From the NCBI GenBank assembly GCA_048884965.1, contig JBHLQH010000016.1:1-64000 (forward strand): a stretch of DNA of 64,000 bases, read 5' to 3'. The DNA comes from Candidatus Thorarchaeota archaeon (GTDB taxonomy: Archaea; Asgardarchaeota; Thorarchaeia; Thorarchaeales; Thorarchaeaceae). This document shows, piece by piece, positions 6,956-44,700 of this stretch. The notes below the pieces were generated by a model, which worked only from the letters and a program-made list of their open reading frames with translations, did no database searches and was not told where the DNA came from. The position numbers and the translations under genes were made by a program. Numbering within the stretch: the stretch's first letter is position 1; the number at the start of each line of letters is the position of its first letter.

Positions 6956-7909
6956 ATGATGACCTTAAAAGAGATAATTGAAAGTGATACGATCAAGTTC
7001 ATACTGAGCGGAGGCAAAGGAGGAGTTGGCAAGACTAGTTGCGCAGGAGCTCTAGCTGTTCTTTCTGCCAAGAGAGGCCTACGTACTCTGGTTCTTTCCA
7101 CGGACCCAGCTCATAGCTTAAGTGATAGCTTTGATCAAGACTTGGCGGGAGGAGATCCTGTTCCAATCAAGGGATTTGACAATCTTTGGGGCATGGAGAT
7201 AGATACTGAGAAAGGAATGCAGGAGTTTCAAGATACACTCGGAAGCGGAGCTGCGGGACCTGATATGCAAATGGCTTCGAACCTCCTTGGAGATATGGGT
7301 GGAATGTCGCCACCAGGCTCCGATGAGGCAATGGCTTTCGGGAAGATATTGGAGTTCATTGAGGACTCGTCTTATGATAGGGTCATATTCGATACAGCTC
7401 CCACAGGGCATACCCTTAAGCTCCTAGAGCTGCCTGATTTACTAGATAGTTGGCTTGGGAAGGTCTTGACACTTCGCCAGCGCCTGAGTTCGATGATGTC
7501 AGGACTCCGTGCGATGATGGGAGGTGGAGACCAAGAAGAAACAGCTTGGCAGATGCTGCAAAACACCAAAGACAAGATTCGAATGGCACGAATTGAGCTT
7601 TCGGATCCAGATACGACACAATTCGTGGTCGTCACAATTGCTGAAGCTATGGCGGTCTTCGAAACTCAGAGACTCCTTGGCAGCCTCAATGCATGGCACA
7701 TTCCAGCAACTAATATCATCATTAATCAACTCATTCCAGAGAACCCAGATTGCAAGTTTTGTTCCTCAAGAAGACATATGCAGCAGCAGAACATCATCGA
7801 TATTCGAGACCTCTTCAATGACCTCCATGTGACAGAGGTGCCACTATTCGATAATGAGATAAGAGGCATAGAAGGATTATCAGAATTGGGAGAAATTCTG
7901 ATTAAGTGA
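6956..7909 (+). CDS. Get3/TRC40-type ArsA-family ATPase (single domain)
   Basis: GGKGGVGKT, STDPAH, DTAPTGHT, Met-rich helical insert, C-terminal CKFC motif typical of Get3-like dimers. Confidence 0.9.
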   Translation: MMTLKEIIESDTIKFILSGGKGGVGKTSCAGALAVLSAKRGLRTLVLSTDPAHSLSDSFDQDLAGGDPVPIKGFDNLWGMEIDTEKGMQEFQDTLGSGAAGPDMQMASNLLGDMGGMSPPGSDEAMAFGKILEFIEDSSYDRVIFDTAPTGHTLKLLELPDLLDSWLGKVLTLRQRLSSMMSGLRAMMGGGDQEETAWQMLQNTKDKIRMARIELSDPDTTQFVVVTIAEAMAVFETQRLLGSLNAWHIPATNIIINQLIPENPDCKFCSSRRHMQQQNIIDIRDLFNDLHVTEVPLFDNEIRGIEGLSELGEILIK

Positions 7910-7923
7910 TAGGAGGGTATAGA

Positions 7924-8022
7924 ATGAGATACGCATACAAGAGAAAAATCATCTCTGCCTTTTTCATCTTAATCTTCCTGGCTTCGATTGTAGCTGCAGC
8001 ATGGTTGATATTCAAAGGCTAG
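7924..8022 (+). CDS. Putative 32-aa single-TM small membrane protein (MRYAYKRKIISAFFILIFLASIVAAAWLIFKG)
   Basis: Below the ORF-track size cutoff. GGAGG Shine-Dalgarno directly upstream, 14 nt after the get3 stop; basic N-terminus and a 22-residue hydrophobic stretch; fills the gap before the convergent rpoP. Confidence 0.65.
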   Translation: MRYAYKRKIISAFFILIFLASIVAAAWLIFKG

Positions 8023-8029
8023 AAGCCAA

Positions 8030-8173
8030 TCATACACCCTTAACACGTTTCACGACGGGGGGTCTAATCTTGTACAGAATACGGCCTCCGCAGTAGGGGC
8101 ATTTGACTCCTGGTAGTGTCTTTAGACCTTCAGCTGTAACTTCATATTTGCAAGAATGACACACATAGACCAT
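8030..8173 (-). CDS. rpoP: RNA polymerase subunit P (Rpo12)
   Basis: MVYVCHSC...VKCPYCGGRILYKIRPPVVKRVK zinc ribbon. Confidence 0.93.
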   Translation of the reverse strand: MVYVCHSCKYEVTAEGLKTLPGVKCPYCGGRILYKIRPPVVKRVKGV

Positions 8174-43762: not shown

Positions 43763-44020
43763 TTATCTCAACACGAAGTCGGGAGGGTGCATGACGAAAT
43801 ATACGACAATGACAGACAGAATGATTCCACCAAGAATCAACTTCTGTCCAGTGAGTTTCCCAACCTTTACGCCCACAAACATAAGTATTGCTCCTATCAA
43901 GATGACAAGAATACCGGATGACGCGGCGATAAAGAGAAGAGAATCCCAAATTTCTCGAAGGTATTGCAGAATCAAGTCAGTAAAGTCAGTAAGAGGACTT
44001 TGCATTAGTTGCGGGTTCAT
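43763..44020 (-). CDS. Small two-TM membrane protein
   Basis: Two hydrophobic helices joined by GKLTGQK; co-oriented with the operon. Confidence 0.6.
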   Translation of the reverse strand: MNPQLMQSPLTDFTDLILQYLREIWDSLLFIAASSGILVILIGAILMFVGVKVGKLTGQKLILGGIILSVIVVYFVMHPPDFVLR

Positions 44021-44148: not shown

Positions 44149-44700
44149 CTACATGAGCTGCGTACCCATGATTCTTTGCAGGATTCCACTAAGTCCTAGT
44201 CCAACAAGGAAATAGAAACCCCAAAATGTCATACCAAACCCGACACCAACAGGTGTGCCGATCATCCCCTCAAGGAACGGCAGGAGCTTGTGGACATTGA
44301 ATGGAAGAACGGCTACAATCTTGTCCATTCCTGTTACTGGATCATTGTAGAAACTTCGTAGGAAGGAGAAAACAAGAAGGAAAGGTATCATGAACATGAG
44401 TGATGGCTTGCACCGTTCGGTCATCATCTCTCTCTGGATGCGGTCTATGTATGCCTTTTGTCTCTTGACCTTTTTTAGCAACTTCGCGTTCTGCGTCCGT
44501 TCTGCTTCTTTCTGCATCTCCTGATGTTGTTTGATTGCTACCTGATAGCGTTTGAGACGCCTCATATCAGCGAATCTGCGCATACCCAGATTACTTATCG
44601 TGGATACGGATACTGACACGAATACGATTAGGATAGGCGCAAACGGAGGGTCAGCGAATATCTGAAAATAGTTCATCAAATCAGCTAAAAGGTCTTGCAT
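44149..44700 (-). CDS. DUF106 / EMC3-TMCO1 (Oxa1-superfamily) membrane protein
   Basis: TM1, cytosolic coiled coil, KPSLMFMIPFLLVF, FWGFYFL; conserved position between adk and eL34. Confidence 0.88.
   Translation of the reverse strand: MQDLLADLMNYFQIFADPPFAPILIVFVSVSVSTISNLGMRRFADMRRLKRYQVAIKQHQEMQKEAERTQNAKLLKKVKRQKAYIDRIQREMMTERCKPSLMFMIPFLLVFSFLRSFYNDPVTGMDKIVAVLPFNVHKLLPFLEGMIGTPVGVGFGMTFWGFYFLVGLGLSGILQRIMGTQLM

Follow-up and report, generated by a model that had tools for sequence, protein, structure and literature searches.

Described clients of Get3/TRC40 that are tail-anchored, such as Sec61-beta, phospholamban and sarcolipin, have one very hydrophobic transmembrane (TM) helix at the C-terminus and keep the N-terminus in the cytosol. 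To our knowledge, archaeal Get3 proteins have no known membrane partner and no genetically defined client or receptor, and translational coupling of a client gene to a Get3 gene has not been described. On the membrane side, Get2 and CAML bind Get3 through a positively charged N-terminal stretch, and their TM domains bind Get1 (PMC7817167). It has been proposed that GET2 derives from EMC6-like proteins, and a GET2 homologue is absent from archaea (PMC8675477). A further group of described proteins, the bacterial KdpF, AcrZ, CydX and similar, binds larger membrane complexes. These are chains of about 30 residues with one TM helix, which are often missed by annotation, are encoded in an operon with their functional partner and act by way of a conserved helix face (PMC12648545).

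Here we analyzed a stretch of 64,000 nucleotides from a Candidatus Thorarchaeota archaeon (contig JBHLQH010000016.1, positions 1 to 64,000; hereafter the window), in which a get3 gene is followed by a short open reading frame (ORF) for a 32-residue membrane protein that we refer to as the microprotein. The get3 gene is on the forward strand at positions 6956 to 7909, ends in a TGA stop codon (7907-7909) and is present as a single copy in the genome. Its product is a single-domain Get3/TRC40-type ATPase of 317 amino acids with a P-loop, a CxxC motif (C266, C269) and a Met-rich helical subdomain. The Pfam domain PF02374 (ArsA_ATPase) spans residues 14 to 316 of the 317 (E 7e-89), and the TIGR00345 model (GET3_arsA_TRC40) scores 299 bits against a cut-off of 135. 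The nearest solved structures in the PDB are those of Get3, TRC40 and ArsA1. The homologous archaeal Get3 proteins from M. thermautotrophicus (3zq6) and M. jannaschii (3ug6) match with E 5e-78 and E 4e-72, respectively, and E. coli ArsA gives a partial match only (E 7e-33). The deviant Walker A P-loop GKGGVGKT and both cysteines of the CxxC zinc motif are invariant in an alignment of 49 Asgard Get3 sequences, the CxxC aligns with that of 3zq6, and Met-rich stretches are located at about residues 103-117 and 180-190 of the translation. No ars genes were found within about 7 kb on either side of get3, and the neighbourhood is made up of housekeeping genes (ADH, FBPase, aldolase, PNP, rpoP, radical SAM, SUI1, TFB, MetAP, Roadblock and PcrB). 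Judged on these profile, structure and motif matches, the product is a true Get3/TRC40-branch ATPase, and we predict that it delivers tail-anchored proteins.

The microprotein gene occupies positions 7924 to 8022 of the forward strand. Its ATG start codon at 7924 lies 14 nt past the get3 stop, a GGAGG Shine-Dalgarno (SD) motif at 7912 to 7916 precedes the start by 7 nt, and the TAG stop codon is at 8020 to 8022. An alternative GTG start at 7906, which would give a protein of 38 amino acids, was rejected because the orthologues described below favour the ATG at 7924. The get3-microprotein unit is bounded by rpoP, the gene for RNA polymerase subunit P with its zinc ribbon (8030 to 8173, reverse strand; PF03604 Zn_ribbon_RPAB4, E 6e-5). 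The two genes are convergent and their stop codons are only 7 nt apart (8020-8032), so the 3′ ends of the transcripts must overlap each other's coding regions. In the NCBI record of a near-identical genome, rpoP is called as a 47-aa gene along with PNP, get3 and radical SAM, and nothing is called in the gap that holds the microprotein. The exact peptide is also absent from a collection of 15 billion proteins. The few relatives that have been called elsewhere are named "hypothetical protein" or "uncharacterized integral membrane protein", and the microprotein could not be assigned to a family with Pfam, NCBIfam or the ESM Atlas. Rfam has no match at the locus, and no paper describing the microprotein was found in the literature.

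For comparison, we took get3 loci from 30 related genomes, with f1 designating the family to which the window's genome belongs. Excluding the window's own locus, there were 22 f1 loci in which the end of get3 could be read, and in all 22 the start of an orthologous frame is found -4 to +14 nt from the get3 stop, frequently as an ATGA overlap of the get3 stop with the microprotein start. The frame is 32 codons long in 22 of the 23 f1 species sampled, with 34 codons in the exception, L025, and in both f1 and its sister family f2 the conserved convergent neighbour is rpoP. A profile made from 12 copies of the microprotein was then searched over 400 genomes of the phylum. This gave a strong single match in 81 of 85 f1 genomes, the four misses being genomes that are 71-83% complete, and a broader profile found a match in every f1 genome that is at least 85% complete (57/57). 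Among f1 genomes of at least 90% completeness, get3 was located in 39, and coordinate comparison places the microprotein gene directly after it in every one. The arrangement stands in contrast to that in the other archaea, including euryarchaea, and the bacteria that we sampled, where 1 of 77 unrelated ArsA/Get3 loci has a small hydrophobic ORF downstream, which is not TM-like.

The pattern of substitution is that of a coding sequence under constraint. Across the 22 copies of 32 codons the mean pS of 0.80 is saturated, compared with a pN of 0.31, and dN/dS has a median of 0.33 over the 13 closest pairs. Column entropy sums to 28.6 at first, 19.0 at second and 48.6 at third codon positions. Start codons interchange among ATG, GTG and TTG in relatives, and a GGAG or GAGG motif is located at -16 to -3 in 30 of 39 f1 copies as opposed to 7% of control windows. 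An exhaustive search of 1.84 billion representative proteins yielded nine true relatives of the microprotein, all of 32-36 aa, and no fused or longer forms. One match of 1166 aa in this search was discarded as a repetitive artefact. From the get3-linked orthologues, the variation by codon position and the conservation of the helix described below, we conclude that 7924-8022 is a real, selected gene that is tightly coupled to get3.

AlphaFold2, supplied with 37 sequences, models residues 3-31 of the microprotein as a single helix with a mean pLDDT of 90. The TM span covers residues 9-30 (22 residues, mean Kyte-Doolittle value 2.74), with a basic head (R2, K6, R7 and K8) ahead of it and two residues beyond. 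Within the head, R2, K/R6 and K8 are kept, with Lys at position 8 in 34 of the 37 sequences. Ser21 is invariant in all 37, which come from four families including f12 and f15. This residue is part of a conserved stripe formed by S11, F14, F18, S21, A25 and L28 at heptad a/d positions, and positions 11/14/18/21/25/28 are 0.95 bit more conserved than the remaining span (p = 0.008, with the choice of the best of seven registers accounted for). The presence of Ser and Ala in a conserved stripe suggests that the microprotein packs against one particular helix, since burial in a chaperone groove alone would not need such a stripe. We predict from the basic head and the positive-inside rule that the N-terminus is inside and the C-terminus outside. 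With one TM helix at the C-terminus and no other TM segment or signal peptide, the microprotein as modelled fits the structural definition of a tail-anchored protein.

These results bear on a first-pass annotation of the window, made from its letters, which had described a get3 gene with a CxxC motif and a Met-rich insert and with no ars genes nearby. It had placed an unannotated ORF 14 nt after the get3 stop behind a GGAGG site and had read from it a basic head, one TM helix and two trailing residues. Each of these observations agrees with what we report above. It had also suggested that synteny and dN/dS in relatives would be informative about the ORF, and both the gene order in 39 of 39 f1 genomes and the median ratio of 0.33 speak for its conservation.

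The microprotein can be compared with each of the described systems. It resembles the tail-anchored clients in its single, very hydrophobic C-terminal TM helix, its predicted cytosolic N-terminus and its expected post-translational insertion, and its size is comparable to that of the sarcolipin-type micro-regulators, which act by helix packing. It differs from such clients in having no cytosolic domain beyond a head of 8 residues and in the coupling of its gene to the chaperone gene, and no sequence relation to any named family was found. With Get2, CAML and plant GET2 it shares a basic N-terminus that is predicted to be cytosolic, a C-terminus predicted to be outside, a membrane anchor and a genetic tie to Get3. 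However, those proteins have three TM helices where the microprotein has one, and Get2 and CAML have a long tether in place of a head of about 8 residues. The basic run of GET2 consists of at least four Arg/Lys in a row (PMC7817167), compared with the usual three in the microprotein (K/R6, R/K7 and K8). We rejected the microprotein as a Get2 homologue on the number of TM helices and the length of the basic run. The likeness to KdpF, AcrZ and CydX covers size, the single TM helix, annotation status, operon context and conserved face, but the genes of that group sit with the membrane complex that their products bind, whereas the operon partner of the microprotein is a soluble targeting ATPase.

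Beyond f1, a homologous frame also follows get3 in f2 and in f12 and f15, with adjacency in 4 of 4 f12 and f15 loci inspected. On the Get3 tree the get3-linked families are spread over three separate clades, and the linkage therefore requires a minimum of three gains or losses. In total, 5-6 of the roughly 30 Asgard families that we sampled have the microprotein. Searches of the Loki-size, Odin-size and most other sampled families, 1.4-Mb genomes among them, did not detect it, and nearly all of these families carry Get3. The largest family sampled (106 genomes) gave four matches to the microprotein profile, all of which were noise, and the weak matches in other families were rejected as TM-segment noise, as all of them are inside large ORFs. 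From this distribution we conclude that the microprotein gene is old and patchy and that its role is lineage-specific, as opposed to that of a universal Asgard GET component, because most Get3-bearing Asgard families are without a detectable copy.

The family f21 has the gene in a different setting. All six f21 genomes contain a free-standing relative of 27-29 codons that has an SD-like motif of its own and encodes a head of only 3-4 residues. Its neighbours are a DUF763 gene on one side and a Ras-family GTPase gene on the other. A distance of 873 kb separates this relative from get3 in the closed genome G149. Get3 itself was found in G149, G152 and G153 and as a fragment in G151, and was missed only in G150, an assembly of 540 contigs. 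The f21 copies (L132-L137) are transcribed divergently from one or two genes for Ras-family small GTPases and convergently with the DUF763 gene, an order seen in all f21 contigs of sufficient length. A weak candidate relative of 38 aa was found in the Ca. Heimdallarchaeota genome G399 (L140:2447-2560), with a good SD motif and E 0.0013 against a profile that excludes it. The candidate is flanked by a gene for an ALG3/GT87-like (GT-C-type) membrane glycosyltransferase and by an overlapping gene of unknown function that encodes 346 aa.

The first-pass annotation had gone on to cast the microprotein as either a dedicated client or a minimal membrane tether of a proto-GET pathway and to name an EMC3/TMCO1-like gene in the window as a candidate insertase. 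We did not find support for the proto-GET part, given a protein limited to 5-6 of about 30 Asgard families and separated from get3 by 873 kb in f21. For the insertase candidate, the family identity stood and the link did not. The gene, at 44149 to 44700 on the reverse strand, belongs to DUF106, an archaeal YidC-like family (PF01956, E 1e-20, profile positions 13-168 of 169), and is the genome's only EMC3/TMCO1 homologue. It is 36 kb from the microprotein gene on the opposite strand, beside an adenylate-kinase-like gene, and we treat it as context only. A separate EMC6-like gene is present in one copy elsewhere in the genome (G000:C35:11880-12116).

We propose, with a probability of roughly 45%, that the coupled microprotein is a dedicated client of Get3 that then packs with a membrane partner. 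The microprotein would be translated from the get3 mRNA by translational coupling. A chain of 32 residues leaves the ribosome before its hydrophobic helix is exposed, so from general knowledge we infer that there is no co-translational targeting and that insertion must be post-translational. Of the factors built for such helices, the Get3 of the same mRNA is the nearest, which makes a dedicated client the most likely reading. Get3 made on that mRNA would capture the very hydrophobic helix and deliver it to the membrane as a built-in client. Once there, the conserved face would pack against a partner helix, either from other copies of the microprotein or from another membrane protein, with the basic head resting at the cytoplasmic surface. 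The free-standing f21 copies fit with the microprotein having a job of its own. Several considerations weigh against a dedicated client. It is unusual for a general chaperone to have just one client in its operon. A peptide this short and very hydrophobic might not need Get3, inserting unaided or with the help of the YidC-like DUF106 protein, and a receptor subunit would be equally expected to have a conserved face and a basic head. A predicted complex of two Get3 chains, the microprotein, 2 ATP and Zn, in which the fold of the partner was uncertain and for which there were no controls, received a score of 0.00 (mark 0.32) and carries no weight for or against binding of the microprotein by Get3.

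A receptor subunit of this kind would be a minimal docking site for Get3, analogous to Get2 and CAML by function and not by descent, with a helix that packs by its conserved face against an insertase formed by the DUF106/EMC3-like and EMC6-like proteins, and a basic head that attracts the acidic face of Get3 and recruits loaded Get3 to this insertase. We consider this unlikely, although a substantial part of the evidence is compatible with it. The microprotein is encoded in the get3 operon with translational coupling in four deep families, its basic positions R2, K/R6 and K8 are conserved, and possible partners are encoded in the genome by one EMC3-like and one EMC6-like gene. Positive charge at the N-terminus is what Get2 and CAML use to bind Get3, and there is a parallel between the conserved TM face and the binding of GET1 by plant GET2 through its TM domains (PMC7817167). 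No GET2 homologue is known in archaea (PMC8675477). On the other hand, a head of about 8 residues (3-4 in f21) that is part of the same helix as the membrane span, and one TM helix in place of three, make for a poor match to those receptors, and the positive-inside rule alone explains basic residues beside a TM helix. A docking subunit is also difficult to reconcile with the many Get3-bearing Asgard families in which it was not detected and with its unlinking from get3 in f21. Get3 itself provides no sign of such contact, as no column of the Get3 alignment separates the linked families from the unlinked, and none is common to the four linked families and rare in eleven others. The more explicit form of this analogy, a one-helix counterpart of Get2/CAML whose face binds a DUF106/EMC6-type insertase and whose basic head captures Get3, is slightly more doubtful.

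The same lack of co-variation on the Get3 side would be expected if the microprotein were a small membrane protein without a functional tie to Get3, with an adjacency that reflects inherited gene order and use of the get3 promoter and ribosomes. That the protein stands alone between DUF763 and Ras-family GTPase genes in 6/6 f21 genomes agrees with this, as does the weak G399 match beside a GT-C-type glycosyltransferase. We nevertheless find the idea somewhat harder to accept than docking in either form, because the linkage to get3 has outlived saturated synonymous divergence, is found in three separate Get3 clades despite turnover of the other neighbours (rpoP, for instance, is adjacent in f1, f2 and f12 only), and is held at a spacing of no more than 14 nt across f1. 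Two explanations in which no separate protein is made have very little in their favour. The convergent stops only 7 nt apart could mean that the conserved element is non-coding, for example the overlapping 3′ ends of the get3 and rpoP transcripts. This is highly improbable, given that variation is highest at third and lowest at second codon positions, dozens of species keep the frame open and its length fixed, the SD motif is retained, Rfam has no match, and the features are kept in f15 and f21, where rpoP is not adjacent. The frequent overlap or abutment of the ORF with the get3 stop might instead indicate recoding, in which read-through or frameshifting adds a membrane anchor to a fraction of Get3. 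We rejected recoding and fusion, and give them the least credence of all, as the offsets from the get3 stop (-4, -1, 0, 2, 3, 5, 14 and 43 nt) cover each of the three phases, every copy comes with a start codon and SD motif of its own, and no fused form occurs among the 1.84 billion representative proteins.

The microprotein is a concrete candidate for a client or a membrane partner of an archaeal Get3. The get3-microprotein pair, coupled in several deep Asgard lineages, offers a natural minimal system for the study of client holding or docking. Were docking to prove true, no known Get3 receptor would be simpler than the microprotein, and none would have been described in an archaeon before it. 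The gene is also an example of a selected microprotein gene that annotation pipelines have overlooked, and it belongs in Asgard gene sets.

Several further observations concern the genes at and around these loci. In many relatives (L010, L014, L018-L020, L023 and L024), the GGAGG of the microprotein gene is encoded in the last Glu-Glu codons of get3, and the placement of the SD motif within the 3′ end of get3 results in a variable, acidic, Glu-rich Get3 tail in those relatives. The window's Get3 is without a Glu-rich tail, and the SD motif is instead within the 14-nt spacer. Some relatives have tandem, distant ArsA/Get3-like paralogues with 28-32% identity to Get3 (G004:C67:24996-26948, G008:C8:46747-48700, G009:C29:193349-195302, G023:C11:17432-19388 and G031:C10:853-2873), which the window's genome does not have. 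In f12 (L027 and L032), an rpoP-like gene is on the get3 strand about 150-230 nt after the microprotein gene, and its product is extended to 71-81 aa and has additional CxxC pairs before the usual Zn ribbon. Within the window, a frame of 85 aa with two hydrophobic spans and no Pfam match (43763-44020, reverse strand) lies 128 nt downstream of the DUF106 gene on the same strand. Finally, the microprotein itself varies within f1: in genus g6 (L143-L146) the protein is 33 aa long and its C-terminal third differs, and in one genome a further copy (G351:C292:6384-6458) follows the first at a distance of about 600 nt downstream.
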